Below the pieces are notes generated by a model. The model saw nothing but the letters and a program-made list of their open reading frames with translations. It did not search any database and had not been told where the DNA came from. DNA of 34,348 nt, taken from the NCBI GenBank assembly GCA_964517155.1, contig CAZFAZ010000041.1:1-34348 (forward strand). Reading direction: 5' to 3'. How positions within the stretch are numbered: position 1 is the stretch's first letter; the number at the start of each line of letters is the position of its first letter. Of this stretch, positions 5,055 to 34,348 are shown piece after piece. The stretch is from an uncultured Thermoplasmatales archaeon. GTDB lineage: Archaea > Thermoplasmatota > E2 > DHVEG-1. The position numbers and the translations under genes are program-made.

Positions 5055-6113
5055 GTGAAAAAAGATATTTTAACAAAAAAAGAACAAAAAGTTCTGTATG
5101 GAATAACAAAATATCCAAATATAAATGATAGCGAATTATCAGATATTATAAATATAAAATTATCAACACTAACATCTATTAAAAAAAGACTTTATGCTCA
5201 AGGATACTATAGAACACTAGATGTGCCGCTACTAAACAGATTAGGTGCTGAACTATTAGCAGTTATATATACTACATTTAATCCTGTAATACCACTTGAT
5301 GAGCGTGTTAAAACAACAAAAGCTACAATTGAGGTTTTTGAAGAAATATTTTTTTCAGTAGGTGAACAAGAAAAAGGATTCTCAATAAGTCTTTCAAAAA
5401 ATTACACAAACATTGGACGAATCAATGAGATTCGTACAGAAACGTTTGGAAAAGTAGGGCTTTTAGAAAATGAATACCCAAATGAGAGTATATTCCCATT
5501 TGAAATAAGTCACATAAATAGATTTTTTGATTTTGCTCGTGTTTTAAAAAATCTTTTTAATATTGAAGATGACGATAGCAAAAATAATACAGATACATGG
5601 TTTAAAGATATAAACAAAAATTATTTATCTGAAAAAGAAAAAAAGGTTTATGTTGAACTTATTAAAAATCCAGATGCTACTACCCAGCAAATTGGTAAAA
5701 ATATTGGTCTTTCGCGTCATACTGTTTCAAGAATGAAAAAAAATTTTTATGATGAAAATCTTCTAAAAAAAATTACTCTTCCAAGTTTAAATCACTTGGG
5801 TTTTGAAATCCTTGCATTTTATCCGATTAAATTTAACCCAAATAAATCACCAAAAAAACAAGATATTGATGTTCTTGACACTTATTCAACGATATTTTTG
5901 GCACGTAGACAATTTGAAACGGTAATTATCTCTGCATATTCTACTTATCAAGATTATAAAGAAGATAAAATGAATAAAATAAGGTACTTAAAAGAAAATA
6001 ATTTTATTTCATATTCGCCAATTGTTGGAAAATACGTGCTTGAAAAAATGACTGTAATTAAAGACTTTGATTTTGCGCCTATTGCACAAAAAGTCATTTC
6101 AAATATTATATAA
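5055..6113 (+). CDS. Transcriptional regulator with two tandem Lrp/AsnC-like wHTH modules
   Basis: Internal duplication: LTKKEQKVLYGITKYPNINDSELSDIINIKLSTLTSIKKRL...PLLNRLGAELLA versus LSEKEKKVYVELIKNPDATTQQIGKNIGLSRHTVSRMKKNF...PSLNHLGFEILA. Confidence 0.75.
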   Translation: MKKDILTKKEQKVLYGITKYPNINDSELSDIINIKLSTLTSIKKRLYAQGYYRTLDVPLLNRLGAELLAVIYTTFNPVIPLDERVKTTKATIEVFEEIFFSVGEQEKGFSISLSKNYTNIGRINEIRTETFGKVGLLENEYPNESIFPFEISHINRFFDFARVLKNLFNIEDDDSKNNTDTWFKDINKNYLSEKEKKVYVELIKNPDATTQQIGKNIGLSRHTVSRMKKNFYDENLLKKITLPSLNHLGFEILAFYPIKFNPNKSPKKQDIDVLDTYSTIFLARRQFETVIISAYSTYQDYKEDKMNKIRYLKENNFISYSPIVGKYVLEKMTVIKDFDFAPIAQKVISNII

Positions 6114-25973: not shown

Positions 25974-26023
25974 TGACATTTTTGCAGGTTAACTTTAAAT
26001 ACCATATTTGACAAAAATTGTCA
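25974..26023 (+). promoter_or_regulatory. Response-regulator promoter with TGACA box, TATA and TGACA-N5-TGTCA palindrome
   Basis: TGACA at 25974, TTTAAATA at 25994-26001, and TGACAAAAATTGTCA at 26009-26023 next to the predicted TSS. Confidence 0.65.
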
Positions 26024-26060
26024 TGGTAAAGATGTTTCTTAGGAAGGTGAAAAAATAAAG

Positions 26061-26450
26061 ATGAATAAAAGAGTAATGATTGTTGATGACGAGCCTGACG
26101 TCTTAATATCACTAAAAACTGTTCTTGAAAGACAAAACTATGATGTTATAACAGTTACAAACGGCTCAGAATGCTTAAAAGAAATCGAAAAAGGGTTCAC
26201 AGGCGTAATACTTATGGATATAATGATGCCAGTAATGGACGGCTGGGAAACAATAAATCAAATAGTAAAAAAAGGTTATACAAAAGATGTTGCAATAGAA
26301 ATAATTACAGGTAAAGGAACAAAAGACTATCAAAAACTAAGCATACTAGGCTCATACATATATGATTACCTTGCAAAACCACTAAATGTAGAGCAACTTG
26401 TAGCAAGTGTAGAGGCATGTAACAGATACTTTCACTCAAAAAACGCATAA
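26061..26450 (+). CDS. Stand-alone response regulator receiver (CheY-like) protein
   Basis: VMIVDDE, phospho-acceptor ILMDIMMPVMDG, ITGK and YLAKP; no output domain. SD GGAAGGTGA. Confidence 0.93.
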   Translation: MNKRVMIVDDEPDVLISLKTVLERQNYDVITVTNGSECLKEIEKGFTGVILMDIMMPVMDGWETINQIVKKGYTKDVAIEIITGKGTKDYQKLSILGSYIYDYLAKPLNVEQLVASVEACNRYFHSKNA

Positions 26451-26464
26451 AATCTTATTTTTTT

Positions 26465-26510
26465 TGACATTTTGTCATTTTGACATTTTACCAGATTAGC
26501 CTTAAATATA
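26465..26510 (+). promoter_or_regulatory. Second copy of the TGACA-TATA promoter, with no ORF downstream
   Basis: TGACA-TTT-TGTCA-TTT-TGACA at 26465-26485 and CTTAAATATA at 26501-26510. Matches 25974-26001 at 23 of 28 positions. Confidence 0.65.
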
Positions 26511-26530
26511 ATTACAGTTCTACCAATTTT

Positions 26531-26651
26531 TACACATCCCATCCTAACAAAAATTTTTGTTGGGTCTGGATCAAAAAAAATTCCAAACACCAAATTCACG
26601 TTTATTAATTTCCTGCTTTAAAGGATCCAGGCCCTACTACCCCTCATTTTT
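26531..26651 (+). ncRNA. Candidate small RNA (~120 nt)
   Basis: Has its own promoter, an 11-bp stem 26562-26572/26624-26634, a hairpin at 26543-26564, C-rich ends and a 3' oligo-T at 26647-26653. Confidence 0.5.
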
Positions 26652-27317
26652 TTAAAAATCACTAAGTTTTTTGATACTTTTTTGTTTTAAAAGATTACTT
26701 GTAGTTTTCCAAGAACGTCTAACCTGCGGAGGCAGATTTTTGTATTTATCAAGCCATTTGCTTAAAAAATTCTGAGTGATTGGATCGGCAGGATAACCAC
26801 TGCCCATTGGAATATTTAGTTTTTTTTCAAGTTGCTCTGCAATCTTTACAATTTCTTCATCTCTTCTTGTTTTTGCAATAATTGATGCGGCACTAACAAC
26901 AGGATAAATATCGTCTGCTTTATGTTTTGAAATAATCTCTGGTTTAAACGAAAGATTTGCAAGAATATCATTTGCAAAACGTTTTTCATTTACATCTGCG
27001 GAATCAACATAACAAATATCTGGTTTTAGTTTTTTAATAACACGTGCAAAAGCATTTACTTCGATTTCATTTAAAGTCATTACCTTTCGCATATCATCAA
27101 TATCTTTTGCAGGGATTACTAAAACTTCATAATCAACTGCTATTTGTTTTATTTTTTCTGCTAAATATTCTCTTCTTTTAGGAGCAATTTTTTTAGAATC
27201 TTTTACTTTTAATTTTATTAAATCTTGATCGTTTTTGAATAATGCGCCTGCTATAATAAGCGGACCAATTACAGGACCTCTGCCGGCCTCATCTGCACCA
27301 CAAATCATTTTATGCAT
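26652..27317 (-). CDS. rnhB: Ribonuclease HII
   Basis: GADEAGRGPVIGP, VKDSK, YVDSAD, HKADD.YPVVSAASIIAK..RD, GSGYP.DP.T and VRRSWKT. Confidence 0.97.
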   Translation of the reverse strand: MHKMICGADEAGRGPVIGPLIIAGALFKNDQDLIKLKVKDSKKIAPKRREYLAEKIKQIAVDYEVLVIPAKDIDDMRKVMTLNEIEVNAFARVIKKLKPDICYVDSADVNEKRFANDILANLSFKPEIISKHKADDIYPVVSAASIIAKTRRDEEIVKIAEQLEKKLNIPMGSGYPADPITQNFLSKWLDKYKNLPPQVRRSWKTTSNLLKQKSIKKLSDF

Positions 27318-27406: not shown

Positions 27407-27480
27407 GCCGATGTAGCTTAGCCCGGTTGAGCGGCTGATTCGTAATCAGCAGGTCGAGGGTTCAATTCCCTCCATCGGCT
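27407..27480 (+). tRNA. tRNA-Thr(CGT), intron-less, CCA not encoded
   Basis: Acceptor stem GCCGATG/CATCGGC with discriminator T; anticodon arm GCTGA-TTCGTAA-TCAGC (CGT at 27441-27443); T arm GAGGG-TTCAATT-CCCTC; upstream TTTATTA TATA box. Confidence 0.97.
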
Positions 27481-28875: not shown

Positions 28876-31800
28876 ATGAAAAAAAATTCAAAAATAATTA
28901 AAGCTGTTTTTATAAACTGTCTATTACTGTTATCAGTATTTTCAGTTGTGTCAGCAGAGGACTATGATGTTGATGTATATGATGGTATAGAATATGAAAT
29001 CGAAATACCTGAAATACATGAACTGCCTCAAATTATCTGCCCAGATAATGAATTTAGTAAAAAGGTATGGGACGATAATACTCAAAGTTGGGATGAAACA
29101 ACTTCACATAATATTGGGGATATTATTAAATTCAGATTGATTTTTACAGCCGAAAAAACAACAAGCGATGTAAAAATTATAGATTATCTACCTAACACTG
29201 TTGCGTTCATCAATTCATCTAGCGCACCATCACTAGTATCTTATAACCAATATTTTGATTTAGGTAATGGTATATTAGGTCCTTGTACAAAAATAGAATG
29301 GAACATTGGAGATATGGGGGTGGGTCAATCCATAGAAATTATTATTCATGGTGAAATTATAGACCACTATAATAAGTATTATGAATCTGAGTACAATCTG
29401 TATGAACCTCGTGGTATAACTAATCCTGAGGCAGTATCTTCTACAAGAAATGTTGCTGTTTTAACAGGTACAAGATATCAATCAGGGTGTGGAAATCCAT
29501 ATCCTTTTACCAAAACCAACGATGCTTTTTTTACTATAATTCTGCCATCTGCAGATATTGAAGTCAACAAATATGTAAGAGATTTATCCTGTAGTTCATA
29601 TCAATCTTACTCCCGCGATTGTTGTTTATATTACGATAGTGTAATTGTTGATAAAGGCGATTCTGTCAGGTTTAAGATAGAAGTTAAAAATACGGGGGAT
29701 GTACCTCTTAATATAACTGTTTTTGATAGTTTGCCTCAAGGTCTTATTTATAACAATAATGCTACACCTTTTGAGCCTGAAACTATTGTTTTGTCTTATG
29801 TTAATGATGGTCATATTATGTATGTTTGGCATATTGGCATTGTTAATCCTAATGATACCGCAGTTATCACTTTTGATGCAATTGTAGATGGTTTTGGAGT
29901 TTACGAAAATTCAGCATCAGCTGTAGGTGCAGCACAAAGTGAAATTGTGGGTGATGAAGACATTGCTACAGTTATTGTCCCATGTGCACCTGGTGTAGAA
30001 ATCGAAAAATGGGTTTGGAATGGAACTGCTTGGTCAGATTATGCTGATGTTAATCTTGGTGATAATGTTAGATTCAAAGCAGTTATTTATAATCCATCTG
30101 AGTGTTATTTAATGCATTTCTGTGGTAATGTTTTTGATCAACTGCCAAGTAATCTTAGGTATGTTAATGGTAGCTCTACTATTTATGAAAGCATGGGTTG
30201 GCCAAATATGGAAGTAGTTGATTGGGAAAATAATACTGTTACTTGGTATAAACCTCCTACTATTATGCCTGGTGAAAATCTTACTTTTTATTATAATGCA
30301 ACAGCTGTAGATTGTGGTTTGGGGATAAATAATCTTACTGCGCATCCTGAGGGTTTTGATCCTGTTGATTATCCTGGAGGAGAATCTGTTTCCAATATCG
30401 ACGGTTCGTATGATGTTTCTGCTAATGCAACTGTAAATGTGATTTGTGAGTTAGAGCGTGGTATTGACCTTGTAAAAACAAATGATATCTGTGAATGTGT
30501 AGATCTTGGTGGTATTATAACTTATACTTATAGGGTTACTAATATTGGTGATGTAACTCTTTATAATGTTAGTGTTGTGGATGATGTTCTTGGTGTTATT
30601 GGGTTGAATAGTACGGTGCTTGCTCCTGGTGAGTGGGCTGTTGGAATAGTGCAACATCAGGTAACTGAAAGTGATTTACCTGGGCCGATTGAGAATGTTG
30701 CTAATGCTTCAGGGGAGGATCAATTTGGTATTGTTGTGTATGATGATGATACTAATAGTATTGTGATTTGTGAACCGTGTCCAGTTATTGATATAGATGT
30801 TAAAAAAATTGTTAAATGGAATTGCCAAGATCCAACATATAATGATACTACCTATGCTCATGTAAACGAATGGGTTACGTTTAAAATAACTGTTAATAAC
30901 ACTGGTGACGTTCCAATTAATATAACGATTTGTGATATTTTACCGCCGGGGCTTGTTTATAATGGATATCCTAGAGTTAATGGTGCTGAAGTTCATCCAG
31001 ATGGTATGTGTTGGACCATAAATAACGTTCAAACTGGTGGTACAGTAATAGTTACCTTTAGAGCTATGGTAATGGTCTGTGGAGAGCATATAAACACAGC
31101 AGTTGTTACCGCAGTTTACGATGGATATGAACCTGTTGTCAAACAAGATAATGCTACTGTTATTGCGTTATGTCCAGATATAGAGATTGTAAAAAGCGCT
31201 GATTCAAACCTTGTATGTAATGGCAGTGAAGTAACTTATACTTATACTGTTACAAACACTGGTAATCATCATCTTATAAATGTAACTGTTACCGATGATA
31301 AGATAACAGGTGTTTCTTATGTTTCTGGTGATACTAATATAGATGGTTGGCTTGATCTTGATGAAACTTGGATTTACAATGCAACTAGTATTTTATGTGA
31401 AAATACAACAAATACTGCTACTGTTTCTGCAAAAGATGAACTTGGAAGAATAGTTACTGATTATGATACCGAGTTTGTTGAAGTAATAGAGTGTCAAGAA
31501 CCTCCAGAACTTGGAATAGAAGTTAATAAAACTGTTAAGAGAAACTGTTGTGGTGATTTTGGAGAAATCGCATATGTTCATCAAAATGATTGGGTGACAT
31601 TTAACATAACTGTTACTAACACTGGTGATGCACCTCTTAATGTAACGGTTACTGATATTCTTCCATGGGGTCTTGATTATGATAATCATGCTACACCAAA
31701 TGGACCTGATTTAGTTATAGTTAGTGTGGGTGTTCCATATCCTGATACAATTTATGTTTGGAATCTGGGTTTTGTTGATCCTGGTGAAACATTTATAATT

Positions 31801-34348
31801 ACTTTTAGAGCAACAGTTAACGGCCAAGTTTGCGGTGGCCTTATAAATAATGTTTATGTGAGTGGAACTTATGAGGATTATCCTGAAGTAACAGATGAAG
31901 ATTCTGCTGAAGTATTTGTTTTATGTCCTGGTATAAGTATTGTTAAGTCTGCTGATAAAACCTTTATTAGTCCTGGTGAGTTGGTTACTTATACTTATGA
32001 GGTTAATAATACAGGTAATGCTGCTTTGAGAAATGTTGTTGTAGTTGATGATAAGCTTGGTGTTGTTTCTTATGTTTCTGGTGATCTTGATGTTGATGGG
32101 TGGCTTGATCTTGATGAAACTTGGATTTTTACTGCTACTGCAAATCCAATGCAAGATGTTTGTAATGTTGGTACTGTTACTGCAGAGGATGAACTTGGAA
32201 AACAAGTTTCTGATAATGATACAGTGTGTGTTGTTGTAATCAATCCAGGAATTAGTGTTATTAAGAATGTTACTCCTTGTTGTGTTTTACCTGGAGAGTA
32301 TGCTACTTGGAATATTACTGTTCAAAACATTGGTAATGTTATTCTTACAGGTGTTTGTGTCATTGATGATAATATAGGTATTTTGGATAGTATGATTTCT
32401 CTTGCCCCTGGTGAGAAGAAATATTATGAATATACCACCAGTCCAACAGTTGAAACAACAAATACTGTACAGGTTAATGGTACCGATCCTCTTGGTTTAG
32501 AGGTTTCAGATTCTGATAGTGCAACTATTGAAATCTGTGAAGTAAATATTGATATAAATGTTGAAAAAACTGTTAAACTTAATTGTTGTGGTGATTATCT
32601 TGAGAATGTTACTTTGCATGTTGGTGATTGGGTGACTTTCAAAATTGAGGTTACTAATACTGGTGATGTTCCTCTTGATATAGAGGTATGTGATGTTTTG
32701 CCTTTTGGTTTACAATATGCAAATAATGCAAAGGTTGATGGTGTTTCTCAGGAGCCTGTTGATAGCTGTTGGTTCATAGAAAATGTTGTCGCAGGTAGGA
32801 CTGTTGTTATTACATTTGAAGCTGATGTTGTAGAGTGTGGTAAGTTTGTTAATACTGTTAATGTTGTAGGTTATTATGAGCAGTTTGAGCCTGTTATAGA
32901 TAGTGATAATGCAACTGTTGAGGTTTTATGTCCTGGTATAAGTATTGTTAAGTCTGCTGATAAAACTCTTATTAGTCCTGGTGAGTTGGTTACTTATACT
33001 TATGAGGTGAGTAATACGGGTAATGCTGCTTTGAGAAATGTTGTTGTAGTTGATGATAAGCTTGGTGTTGTTTCTTATGTTTCTGGTGATACTAATGTTG
33101 ATGGGTGGCTTGATCTTGATGAAACTTGGATTTTTACTGCAAGTACTCAGTTGGATAAGAGTACTACAAATGTTGGTACTGTTACTGCAGAGGATGAACT
33201 TGGAAAACAAGTTTCTGATAATGATACAGTGTGTGTTGTTGTACAAGAATGCCCACCAATAATTAATTTAGAAGTTGAAAAACAAGCTAAGAGGAATTGT
33301 AGTGGAATTTATGGTGACTATATATATGTTGAAAAAGGTTATTGGGCAACATTTAAAATTATTGTTAAAAACACAGGTGAGGTTCCTCTTGATATACAAG
33401 TTTGTGATATACTTCCTGAAAATTTGACTTATGCAGGTTATCCACAGGTAAATGGCGTACCGATTAATCCAATTGATATGTGCTGGGTAATAAATGGTGT
33501 AGAACCAGGTGAAAAAGTTATAATTACTTTTAGAGTAACAGTTGATGAATGCGGTGAACATGTAAATACAGTAATTGTTACTGGTTATTACGAGCAATAT
33601 GAACCAGTTGTTGTTGAGGATACAGCAACTATTTTTACAATATGTCCTGATATAAGTATTGTTAAAACTGCTGATTCAAACCTAGTAAATTTAGGAGACC
33701 TTGTAGCATATACTTATACTGTTAAAAATACTGGTAATCATCACCTTAAAGACATTGTTGTAACTGATGATAAGCTTGGTGTTGTTTCTTATGTTTCTGG
33801 TGATCTTGATGTTGATGGGTGGCTTGATCTTGATGAAACTTGGATTTTTACTGCAAGTACTCAGTTGTATGAAAATACTACAAATGTTGGTACTGTTACT
33901 GCAGAGGATGAACTTGGAAAACAAGTTTCTGATAATGATGATGCATATGTAGAAGTTTTTGAGTGCGGTTGTACACCAAGTATTTCTATTGATAAAAAAG
34001 TATTTGACGGTGAAGTATGGGTTGATGATTTAGTAGTAGAAAAGTTTACTGCATATGTTGAATTCAAAATAATAATTAAAAACACCGGAACATGTGATTT
34101 AACAAATATTGTTGTAATTGATACAATGAATTGTGGTCTTGATTCTGCAACTGATTTTTCAGTTACACCTAATACTATAAATGGTGAACAAATTACTTGG
34201 TTAATACAAGGTGATCTTTTACCATCTCAGACAATTAATATTACATTTAATGCAACAGCGCATATGAATACTTCAAATGAGGTTTTGGTAACTGCTAATT
34301 CAACATATGATCAAACATCTGTTAGTGCAGATGATGAAGTAACAATTA
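28876..34348 (+). CDS. Giant (>1824 aa) Cys-rich surface protein with ~14 DUF11/DUF7507-like Ig-fold repeats; runs off the window
   Basis: SD GGAGG, then ATG 28876 and signal peptide MKKNSKIIKAVFINCLLLLSVFSVVSA. The frame stays open to the window end, which is why it is missing from the ORF track. Repeated K....V.(F/Y).(I/Y).V.NTG....V.V.D.LP.GL.Y motifs. Confidence 0.88.
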   Translation, partial: MKKNSKIIKAVFINCLLLLSVFSVVSAEDYDVDVYDGIEYEIEIPEIHELPQIICPDNEFSKKVWDDNTQSWDETTSHNIGDIIKFRLIFTAEKTTSDVKIIDYLPNTVAFINSSSAPSLVSYNQYFDLGNGILGPCTKIEWNIGDMGVGQSIEIIIHGEIIDHYNKYYESEYNLYEPRGITNPEAVSSTRNVAVLTGTRYQSGCGNPYPFTKTNDAFFTIILPSADIEVNKYVRDLSCSSYQSYSRDCCLYYDSVIVDKGDSVRFKIEVKNTGDVPLNITVFDSLPQGLIYNNNATPFEPETIVLSYVNDGHIMYVWHIGIVNPNDTAVITFDAIVDGFGVYENSASAVGAAQSEIVGDEDIATVIVPCAPGVEIEKWVWNGTAWSDYADVNLGDNVRFKAVIYNPSECYLMHFCGNVFDQLPSNLRYVNGSSTIYESMGWPNMEVVDWENNTVTWYKPPTIMPGENLTFYYNATAVDCGLGINNLTAHPEGFDPVDYPGGESVSNIDGSYDVSANATVNVICELERGIDLVKTNDICECVDLGGIITYTYRVTNIGDVTLYNVSVVDDVLGVIGLNSTVLAPGEWAVGIVQHQVTESDLPGPIENVANASGEDQFGIVVYDDDTNSIVICEPCPVIDIDVKKIVKWNCQDPTYNDTTYAHVNEWVTFKITVNNTGDVPINITICDILPPGLVYNGYPRVNGAEVHPDGMCWTINNVQTGGTVIVTFRAMVMVCGEHINTAVVTAVYDGYEPVVKQDNATVIALCPDIEIVKSADSNLVCNGSEVTYTYTVTNTGNHHLINVTVTDDKITGVSYVSGDTNIDGWLDLDETWIYNATSILCENTTNTATVSAKDELGRIVTDYDTEFVEVIECQEPPELGIEVNKTVKRNCCGDFGEIAYVHQNDWVTFNITVTNTGDAPLNVTVTDILPWGLDYDNHATPNGPDLVIVSVGVPYPDTIYVWNLGFVDPGETFIITFRATVNGQVCGGLINNVYVSGTYEDYPEVTDEDSAEVFVLCPGISIVKSADKTFISPGELVTYTYEVNNTGNAALRNVVVVDDKLGVVSYVSGDLDVDGWLDLDETWIFTATANPMQDVCNVGTVTAEDELGKQVSDNDTVCVVVINPGISVIKNVTPCCVLPGEYATWNITVQNIGNVILTGVCVIDDNIGILDSMISLAPGEKKYYEYTTSPTVETTNTVQVNGTDPLGLEVSDSDSATIEICEVNIDINVEKTVKLNCCGDYLENVTLHVGDWVTFKIEVTNTGDVPLDIEVCDVLPFGLQYANNAKVDGVSQEPVDSCWFIENVVAGRTVVITFEADVVECGKFVNTVNVVGYYEQFEPVIDSDNATVEVLCPGISIVKSADKTLISPGELVTYTYEVSNTGNAALRNVVVVDDKLGVVSYVSGDTNVDGWLDLDETWIFTASTQLDKSTTNVGTVTAEDELGKQVSDNDTVCVVVQECPPIINLEVEKQAKRNCSGIYGDYIYVEKGYWATFKIIVKNTGEVPLDIQVCDILPENLTYAGYPQVNGVPINPIDMCWVINGVEPGEKVIITFRVTVDECGEHVNTVIVTGYYEQYEPVVVEDTATIFTICPDISIVKTADSNLVNLGDLVAYTYTVKNTGNHHLKDIVVTDDKLGVVSYVSGDLDVDGWLDLDETWIFTASTQLYENTTNVGTVTAEDELGKQVSDNDDAYVEVFECGCTPSISIDKKVFDGEVWVDDLVVEKFTAYVEFKIIIKNTGTCDLTNIVVIDTMNCGLDSATDFSVTPNTINGEQITWLIQGDLLPSQTINITFNATAHMNTSNEVLVTANSTYDQTSVSADDEVTI
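31168..33957 (+). repeat. Four ~318-bp intragenic domain repeats: A1 31168-31485, A2 31921-32238, A3 32926-33243, A4 33640-33957
   Basis: A2 and A3 are near-identical at DNA level (e.g. TTATGTCCTGGTATAAGTATTGTTAAGTCTGCTGATAAAAC). All four share GTTTCTTATGTTTCTGGTGAT and TGGCTTGATCTTGATGAAACTTGGATTT. Confidence 0.92.

Follow-up and report, generated by a model that had tools for sequence, protein, structure and literature searches.

A TGACA-box promoter class and a conserved structured small RNA gene beside a stand-alone receiver in an uncultured Thermoplasmatales archaeon

Why should an archaeal gene for a stand-alone response-regulator receiver be flanked by two nearly identical promoters, of which the second points into an apparently empty gap before rnhB? 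The locus that raises this question lies on a contig of 34,348 nt from an uncultured Thermoplasmatales archaeon, which was analysed over its whole length (the window; contig C41 of genome G000, an assembly of 1,585,476 bp in 91 contigs with 31.8% G+C) and was compared with 108 genomes of the family, representing 40 genera, and with 10 genomes from the two sister families of the order; handles beginning with C, G and L denote contigs, genomes and loci throughout. The core of the answer, namely that the two promoters belong to a regulon promoter class defined by TGACA boxes and that the second one precedes a conserved gene for a small RNA (sRNA), is held here with high confidence. The explanation as a whole, which adds two inferred steps, an EarA-family factor binding the boxes and a seed pairing of the sRNA, we consider probable, and each of these steps is graded on its own below.

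The two 28-nt copies are identical at 23 of 28 positions, as counted on the sequence, and in both of them exactly 15 nt separate TGACA from the 8-nt TATA box. An earlier interpretation of the window from its letters only (the sequence-only reading) had described this pair with its common spacing, together with additional half-sites forming TGACA-N5-TGTCA at 26009-26023 and TGACA-N3-TGTCA-N3-TGACA at 26465-26485, and all of these sequences are found in place. Within the window, TGACA-N14-16-YTTAAATA matches twice compared with 0.07 expected matches, a number reached by none of 100 shuffles. A scan of the complete genome and of related genomes, which had been suggested as a means of defining a regulon, did recover one. 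TGACA-N15-YTTAAATA is present in 8 copies in the genome, whereas each of 25 other spacings (N5 to N30) yields 0-2 copies and six control pentamers placed before YTTAAATA, a sequence with 541 genomic sites in total, yield 0-3 matches at any spacing. Only promoters from other genomes were used to derive a weight matrix, 37 in number (26 of the sRNA and 11 of the receiver, remaining from 39 collected ones after removal of two that were misregistered). In this genome it detects 16 sites above 14 bits, 11 above 18 bits and 8 above 22 bits, whereas the reversed genome contains none above 14 bits (maximum 11.3), and the two copies of the window rank first and second genome-wide. In five relatives, 5, 7, 8, 12 and 1 copies of the N15 pattern were counted (33 altogether, with 4 in the backwards control), compared with 4 copies of an N17 pattern (3 in its control). 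Further TGACA-N3-TGTCA palindromes are located on contigs C46, C55, C63 and C65 of the own genome. These counts support the conclusion that the two 28-nt copies are two promoters of one genome-wide regulon, far from what chance would produce.

In the aligned promoters, those of the sRNA show the order TGACAtttTGTCAtttTGACAtttTAACAg, a stretch resembling the B recognition element (BRE), and TTAAATA, and those of the receiver retain the two proximal units; the stretch between TGACA and the TATA box is conserved as well. Of the sRNA promoters of 28 relatives, 22 have an exact TG[A/T]CA at unit 1, 20 at unit 2 and 17 at unit 3, with 9 having it at all three, and TTAA[A/G]TA occupies the TATA position in 28 of 29 relatives' loci, the remaining one being lost at a contig end. 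The box stretch of promoter 1 is kept in all 11 orthologous receiver promoters, in 10 of them with an exact TGACA. The TGACA-N5-TGTCA palindrome downstream of it is exact in only 3 of 12 orthologous promoters (L001, L006, L008), and a second operator or an initiator context are candidate roles for it. In many sister promoters a TAACATG-like initiator is located 22-23 nt past the TATA box, and because of this placement and of the usual archaeal distance from TATA box to start, transcription is predicted to begin near 26023 for the receiver and at 26530-26534 for the sRNA.

The sequence-only reading had noted that the second promoter points into a gap without an ORF (open reading frame) on the + strand and had proposed that a non-coding RNA is encoded there. 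Both statements are borne out, since no + strand ATG ORF is present in the window between the second TATA box and rnhB, none is conserved in the relatives, and the gap carries a covarying stem without a match in Rfam. At all 11 receiver loci compared, the box array, a TATA box and a stretch of conserved sequence come after the receiver gene. For 12 aligned sequences, RNAalifold predicts a 10-bp long-range stem in which GGGUCUGGAU pairs with AUCCAGACCC, with compensatory changes at 4 pairs. Across 30 distinct sequences, 96.3% of 297 cells are paired and 6 of the 10 pairs change on both sides, whereas none of 500 shuffles reaches the observed pairing and slid registers attain 55.4% at most; the alignment used for this count was fitted to the covariance model, which somewhat favours structure. 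The U-G pairs of the stem are compatible with the + strand only. An inner hairpin of varying sequence is found in most relatives and is absent from the window's own genome. The unpaired conserved parts are the 5' ACAUCCCAUCCUA, the internal CACCAAUUCCCUGCUUUU and a C-rich tail (ACCTC or CCCTCC in most homologues) before the oligo-T run, the kind of sequence at which archaeal transcripts end. The region of CAUCCCAUCC near the 5' end contains the sole consecutive run of invariant columns in the 12-sequence alignment; the motif is exact in 21 of 30 homologues, and its predicted probability of being unpaired is 0.87 compared with 0.54 for the rest of the RNA (27 of the 30 sequences, in which the seed was located).

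A covariance model built from the 12 homologues matches the window at 26528-26654 (E 3e-18) and detects exactly one copy in each of 35 of the 108 family genomes, which belong to 21 of the 40 genera; it has no match in the 10 genomes of the two sister families. No paralogue of the sRNA was found in its own genome by blastn-short, and Rfam 15 returned no match in gathering mode and none up to E = 5 in four homologous loci. Two conserved words of the RNA occur together in 119 stretches of public contigs, mostly chance matches in bacteria, and among 80 of these stretches that were tested the model matches 4, all assigned to a Thermoplasmata or Thermoplasmatales archaeon and duplicating known loci. 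The neighbourhood is conserved as well: the receiver gene is located upstream at 28 of 30 sRNA loci, the other 2 ending at contig edges, and rnhB is convergent downstream at 27 (2 lost at contig ends, 1 without rnhB), an order that the sequence-only reading had regarded as informative. Taken with these comparisons, the orphan unit is a real gene for a conserved structured sRNA whose transcript is predicted, and with its promoter, oligo-T end, conserved structure and lack of an ORF the putative RNA has the features of a trans-acting regulatory sRNA. The further suggestion of that reading, that one shared regulator controls a receiver together with a non-coding RNA in an undescribed module, gains support from the regulon motif and the conserved synteny, and a description of either the sRNA or the TGACA box was not found in the literature searched, the scope of which excluded supplements. 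An antisense function towards rnhB was considered separately and ruled out, the distance between the RNA and rnhB varying from near zero to about 440 nt. The idea that UCACC/CCUC stretches mimic an anti-Shine-Dalgarno sequence was dropped; the 3' end of the 16S rRNA was not found in the assembly.

Table 1 Features of the receiver-sRNA locus and the two EarA-like genes (positions refer to the window unless a contig is named)
Feature	Position	Strand	Basis or remark
28-mer copy 1, TGACATTTTTGCAGGTTAACTTTAAATA	25974-26001	+	Sequence read directly
Upstream box, promoter 1	25974-25993	+	Sequence; matrix 34.5 bits, second-best in genome
Strong unit TGACA, promoter 1	25974-25978	+	Sequence
Degenerate second unit TTGCA, promoter 1	25982-25986	+	Sequence
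BRE-like GGTTAAC, promoter 1	25987-25993	+	Sequence
TATA box, promoter 1, TTTAAATA	25994-26001	+	Sequence
Palindrome TGACAAAAATTGTCA (TGACA-N5-TGTCA)	26009-26023	+	Overlaps predicted start of receiver transcript
Stand-alone response-regulator receiver, 129 aa	26061-26450	+	PF00072, E 1.7e-23
Upstream box array, promoter 2	26465-26500	+	Best matrix match in genome, 39.2 bits
Units of promoter 2: TGACA, TGTCA, TGACA, TACCA	26465-26469, 26473-26477, 26481-26485, 26489-26493	+	8-bp register, followed by BRE-like stretch
28-mer copy 2, TGACATTTTACCAGATTAGCCTTAAATA	26481-26508	+	Sequence read directly
TATA box, promoter 2, CTTAAATA	26501-26508	+	Sequence
Small non-coding RNA gene, about 120 nt	26532-26650	+	Predicted ends, +/- few nt
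5' single-stranded motif CAUCCCAUCC, candidate seed	26535-26544	+	Invariant alignment columns C14-C17
Long-range stem, 5' half GGGTCTGGATC	26562-26572	+	RNAalifold
Internal single-stranded element TTTCCTGCTTT (CACCAATTCCCTGCTTTT in most relatives)	26609-26619	+	Nearly invariant columns
Long-range stem, 3' half GATCCAGGCCC	26624-26634	+	RNAalifold
C-rich tail CCCCTCA and oligo-T run	26640-26653	+	Likely terminator; overlaps rnhB stop codon
rnhB (RNase HII)	26652-27317	-	PF01351, E 3.8e-46; convergent with sRNA
EarA-like gene 1 (earA1)	C5:2339-2668		PF07381, E 2.7e-26, 91.7 bits (cut-off 22)
EarA-like gene 2	C51:16982-17314		PF07381, E 5.8e-27, 93.8 bits (cut-off 22)

The theme of the regulon is cell-surface filaments and signalling. 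On the signalling side, stand-alone receivers (PF00072) follow the sites on C41 and C32, a receiver-like ORF of 102 aa, classed without a Pfam scan, follows one on C27, and on C55 a receiver and then a HAMP-HisKA-HATPase kinase stand behind a TGACA palindrome. On the filament side, an Arch_flagellin protein of 295 aa is encoded downstream of the C46 site and one of 209 aa divergently from it, another of 206 aa is associated with the C35 site, one Pilin_N and one DUF7289 protein with the C90 site, and a PKD-Hint protein within a pilus-type operon containing T2SSF with the C74 site. Secreted proteins without a Pfam match follow the sites on C65, C63 and C68, tiny membrane ORFs those on C36 and C27, and units without any ORF those on C41, C52 and C77; the match on C76 is situated within an ORF and is probably false. 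Some of these units show further peculiarities. The 295-aa archaellin-family protein (C46:6064-6951, +) has an additional N-terminal part of about 80 aa before a hydrophobic segment resembling a class III signal, and the TGACA boxes lie between its gene and the divergent one for the 209-aa protein. In the operon on C74 (2861-12648, -), pilin-like proteins (DUF7289, DUF7266) bear PKD and Hint/intein-like domains, and an internal TGACA promoter precedes the last gene. Many leaders of the regulon (for example C46:5990-6060; C65:2570-2635, -; C68:5100-5170; C35:25660-25750) contain 5' hairpins whose sequences are mutually unrelated, with a G-rich stretch for ribosome binding (GGTGA or GGTGG) behind them.

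In the explanation that we favour, each promoter is of the ordinary archaeal BRE/TATA kind, and TG[A/T]CA pentamers are arrayed before it in an 8-bp register and at a constant distance; promoter 1 with its two units serves a phosphorylatable stand-alone receiver, and promoter 2 with its four units a predicted non-coding transcript of about 120 nt, which is structured and terminates at the oligo-T run. An EarA-family activator, for which the genome has two paralogous genes, would recruit TFB/TBP as EarA does at archaellin promoters. The sRNA would pair through CAUCCCAUCC with mRNA 5' ends bearing GGAUGGGAUG across the start codon, and as both earA mRNAs are among these proposed targets, the activator would itself come under feedback from the regulon. 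Through the receiver, phosphorylation would be linked to the regulon as an input or an output. A completely closed circuit, composed of the EarA activator, the TGACA regulon and sibling sRNAs sharing the seed CAUCCCAUCC, in which the sRNA would block translation of earA and of transposases of insertion sequences (IS) and the always-adjacent receiver would tie the feedback loop to phosphorylation signalling, is in our estimate unlikely to apply in all its parts.

The EarA family enters this proposal through the geometry of the boxes. EarA is a winged-helix activator whose gene in many archaea lies by arl and/or che genes, as the available part of one report describes (PMC10117864). It binds TACATA in Methanococcus, and the arl promoters of Thermococcales contain an 8-nt motif including TACA, located 9 nt upstream of the BRE and with up to three adjacent repeats (PMC10665913, available part). 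In the arrays described here the units follow an 8-bp register, and the strongest one is placed 15 nt before the TATA box, or about 9 nt from the BRE if this is assumed to comprise 6 nt; because the TGACA arrays share this EarA-type geometry, an EarA-family factor is proposed. The two EarA-like proteins of the genome have 109 and 110 aa. The gene earA1 lies 2.2 kb upstream of four tandem archaellin genes, which are followed by convergent genes for T2SSF, T2SSE and a short T2SSE-like protein (arlJ/I/H-like; C5:4845-11889), and no arl- or che-type genes are found near the paralogue on C51. EarA homologues are present in 106 of the 108 family genomes, with 1-9 matches each. On this analysis, an EarA-family winged-helix activator as the box-binding factor comes close to an even call, on the lower side.

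The second inferred step concerns the targets of the sRNA. The start of each of the two earA genes falls within GGAUGGGAUG, which is complementary to the 5' motif CAUCCCAUCC at 10 of 10 positions. The complement of the 5' motif, GGATGGGATG, has 18 copies in the genome, compared with 1.0-1.9 expected under Markov models of orders 1-5 and 4.4 under order 6, and 300 10-mers of the same composition have 0.9 copies on average with a peak of 6. Of 30 earA loci, 21 carry the exact motif and 29 contain ATGGGATG. Copies in the complementary orientation extend across the start codons of the two earA genes, several IS transposase genes and one gene for a 419-aa protein; in sense orientation, six copies of the motif are situated in intergenic, sRNA-like settings (one each on C41, C32, C72 and C88, two on C56). 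Within the motif, the reading frame of the earA genes differs from that of the transposase genes, an argument for a signal at the RNA level, and the earA mRNAs may be nearly leaderless because a TATA box is located about 28 nt before the motif. An action of the sRNA in trans, by pairing of CAUCCCAUCC with GGAUGGGAUG at the earA starts, is put forward tentatively and is a possibility rather than the likely outcome. The transposase genes concerned (DDE_5 and DDE_Tnp_1) start in GGATGGGATG or ATGGGATG at C10:29650-29720, C86:5368, C10:31027 and C76:148. The C10 element contains an upstream CCATCC able to pair with the GGATGG of the start, an arrangement that resembles a masking of translation in cis.

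Several results weigh against earA as the target. Changes in the sRNA seed were not found to be compensated at the earA start; in G004, G099 and G079 the seed is altered and the earA motif unchanged. The earA motif is also exact in G024, G100 and G016, where the sRNA model finds nothing, and this agrees better with another RNA of about 75 nt, which occurs family-wide and bears the motif as well. This second RNA (C32:25300-25384, +, equal to L167:2301-2385, with another copy at C56:20146-20223, +) consists of a two-part closing stem, a loop carrying GUGCAUCCCAUCCCCUCCUA and an oligo-T end. A blastn search locates 1-4 copies of it, 75-99% identical, in each of 107 of the 108 family genomes; it has no match in Rfam, and with its loop GUGCAUCCCAUCC it matches the earA start over 12 nt. 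In its promoter, two TACATA-like words are conserved ahead of the TATA box; the seed motif, though not the promoter type, is common to it and the sRNA of the window. One of its copies directly follows the second TGACA-driven receiver gene. Start codons of IS transposase genes within the motif also mean that earA is not a unique target, and a duplex prediction with the whole RNA against 1,493 crudely defined gene starts performed no better than five shuffled RNAs and is uninformative.

There is hence a sizeable minority chance that the sRNA is real and does not act on earA, its 5' motif and CACCAAUUCCCUGCUUUU serving other targets, be it IS transposases or further mRNAs, or binding or titrating a protein, and the 75-nt RNA serving earA instead. 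The retention of the earA motif where the sRNA of the window was not found, the lack of covariation between seed and earA, the 12-nt match of an RNA present in nearly the whole family and the transposase starts all favour this alternative, as does the internal element, which is about as conserved as the 5' motif. Against it stand the match of 10 of 10 positions to both earA paralogues and the unpaired position of the 5' motif, and also the fact that sibling sRNAs with a common seed and common targets are a known arrangement: in bacteria, siblings with one seed and one target set are expressed from different promoters. The sRNA of the window may accordingly be one of several siblings with one seed, the one that is wired to TGACA boxes.

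For the box-binding factor, too, several observations speak against the assignment proposed above. The boxes read TGACA, TGTCA and TAACA, not TACATA or the Thermococcales octamer, and only an ACA core is shared; the canonical archaellin promoter by earA1, at C5:4640-4845, contains TACATA and TGCATAT-type repeats without a TGACA box. A predicted methyltransferase is stated to adjoin earA "always" in the available part of PMC10117864. None was seen beside the earA genes here, the upstream neighbour of earA1 being an HhH-GPD glycosylase and the other neighbours having been judged by eye, and the genome G043 has two EarA matches but a single TGACA-N15 site. A paralogue-specific motif would reconcile the observations on box letters, archaellin promoter and methyltransferase with EarA, which is conjecture. 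The promoters described here resemble the EarA-dependent archaellin promoters of Methanococcus maripaludis and Thermococcales in their adjacent repeats with an ACA core about 9 nt upstream of the BRE (PMC10665913, available part), in their archaellin-family targets and in the EarA-family gene near the arl cluster. They differ from them in the TG[A/T]CA box, which the canonical arl cluster of this genome lacks, and in the extent of the regulon, which comprises about 16 promoters predicted from sequence, those of receivers, pilins and small RNAs included; the literature searched revealed no EarA regulon with an sRNA among its members.

The main rival to EarA is another dimeric regulator with a winged helix, such as an Lrp/AsnC-type protein, which would read the 13-bp palindrome TGACA-N3-TGTCA as upstream activator or as repressor, the regulon and the sRNA remaining as described; we regard this as somewhat unlikely. 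Sites of archaeal Lrp-type regulators, including the tandem Ptr2 sites, consist of five bases, three A/T positions and five bases, and the Ptr2-type sites of Methanocaldococcus form two adjoining palindromes directly upstream of BRE/TATA that help to recruit basal factors. The array of promoter 2 can likewise be read as two adjoining 13-bp palindromes, the distal of which is perfect and has an A/T-rich 3-nt centre, and the additional palindromes on C46, C55, C63 and C65 as well as the archaellin cluster by earA1, devoid of TGACA boxes, are in line with a regulator of this type. Ptr2 sites differ in that the regulator belongs to the Lrp family, the sequence is another one and no sRNA is involved. 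A gene for a 322-aa protein with two winged-helix domains of the HTH_AsnC/MarR type is also found in convergent orientation to the C36 site. No gene of the Lrp type regularly accompanies the sites, however, the 8-bp register and the distance to the BRE match the published EarA layout (PMC10665913, available part), and the archaellin-like and pilin genes fit an EarA-type regulator. The 322-aa protein is encoded at C36:14564-15532 (-), and the TGACA-driven unit convergent with its gene encodes only a membrane peptide of 32-37 aa.

The remaining explanations are far weaker. Some archaea have several TFBs, and the sequence-only reading had named an alternative TFB as a possible co-regulator; the shared element would then be a variant BRE, with which the conservation of the stretch between TGACA and the TATA box agrees. 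This is very unlikely, as TFB reads a BRE of 6-7 nt, TGACA is placed 15 nt upstream of the TATA box and hence beyond it, and units with an 8-bp period extend up to 36 nt upstream, as expected of a multimeric regulator. That a local duplication of the receiver promoter left the second copy behind as a neutral remnant without a functional product, as the adjoining position and the 23 of 28 identities might suggest, has a negligible chance in view of the conservation of promoter 2 and the following 120 nt across 21 genera while the flanks diverge, the compensatory changes in the stem of a single-copy RNA, the conserved neighbours and the same motif at about 16 other units. The same negligible chance is given to a unit encoding a small protein, for which the window offers only two TTG-started frames after promoter 2 (42 and 32 aa, the first beginning upstream of the predicted transcription start), since 12 of 30 homologous stretches have no ATG ORF, the lengths range from 0 to 33 aa without a conserved ORF or common peptide, indels are not multiples of three, and conservation follows the stem, not codons.

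A circuit of CsmR and the sRNA hvo_1211s in Haloferax volcanii is the nearest known case, in which a small winged-helix regulator of the archaellum and an sRNA act in the same circuit; in the available part of the report, CsmR is stated to be unrelated to EarA, and 3'-end protection is the mechanism proposed for the sRNA in this other lineage (PMC13286277). The sRNA promoters of the CiaRH regulon in Streptococcus contain the repeat of a signalling-linked regulator, which thus controls proteins and the cia-dependent small RNAs (csRNAs) together (PMC3091779, available part). This system is bacterial and of unrelated sequence, and its response regulator binds DNA, in contrast to the receiver described here, which has no DNA-binding domain and is itself a member of the regulon. 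The csRNAs reportedly possess C-rich stretches complementary to ribosome-binding and start regions.

A second TGACA-driven sRNA is encoded at C52:19880-19984 (-), equal to L169:2881-2985 (-). It has a GUCUGGA/UCCAGA stem similar to that of the sRNA of the window and a C/U-rich loop, and it is present in 41 of 108 genomes and 22 of 40 genera, a set of genera that largely coincides with that of the sRNA of the window; its homologues in G023 and G018 are located 24 and 51 nt downstream of a TGACA-N15 site. The conserved loop is complementary at 24 of 25 positions to the leader of the TGACA-driven unit at C77:18184-18330 (+; equal to L170:2185-2331), a short unit without an ORF of at least 25 aa, and, by reading, at 12 of 12 positions to 26023-26034 of the window, the predicted 5' end of the receiver mRNA. 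The loop may form an sRNA-target or sRNA-sponge pair with the C77 leader or the receiver 5' end within the regulon.

The receiver itself had been called CheY-like, without DNA-binding output and without a kinase in the window. It is a canonical stand-alone receiver: the PF00072 domain covers residues 5-117 of 129 (83.3 bits, cut-off 30.2) and no output domain is present, and comparison of the translation by eye with the known pattern places the DD of the acidic pocket at residues 9-10, the phosphorylatable D at about 53 within LMDIMMP, T in IITG and K in LAKP. Orthologues share 92% and 85% identity within the genus and 59-73% in nine other genera. Nothing marks it as a chemotaxis CheY, and "CheY-like" here means only a stand-alone receiver; che genes are absent from the 26 ORFs of the window that were scanned, no genome-wide search for them having been made. 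The statement on kinases agrees with the absence of HisKA and HATPase_c from the same 26 ORFs, and one HisKA/HATPase gene is present elsewhere in the genome, after the receiver on C55. The gene rnhB, although conserved as a neighbour, need not be a functional partner. It is followed by a tRNA-Thr (CGT) gene at 27407-27480 (+), the sole match of an Rfam/ARAGORN scan of the window; this gene occupies the same position in the loci L005 and L008, and the conserved order therefore extends to receiver, sRNA, rnhB and tRNA. Elsewhere in the window, 5055-6110 (+) encodes a 352-aa protein with two winged-helix domains (MarR, HTH_24 or AsnC type), and 28876-34347 (+) is occupied by an open-ended gene of more than 1,824 aa with DUF11 and DUF7507 repeats of the surface adhesin type, which runs off the contig end.

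The regulation of motility and surface filaments in archaea is known only from a few cultured models, and the available parts of two reports tie EarA to promoters of archaellum (arl) genes only (PMC10665913; PMC10117864). A feedback loop of a transcription factor and an sRNA for EarA-controlled surface filaments or motility was not found in the literature, and the locus offers a specific pairing hypothesis of this kind, between the sRNA seed and the mRNA starts of the candidate regulator itself. Both the RNA model and the matrix of the promoters are directly applicable to annotating these genomes and to reading metatranscriptomes. The locus yields a defined promoter code and a regulon of about 16 units that joins receivers with archaellin-like and pilin genes, along with two conserved sRNA families without Rfam match driven by the TGACA code, and it points to joint control by protein and RNA of cell-surface filament genes in an uncultured family of Thermoplasmata.

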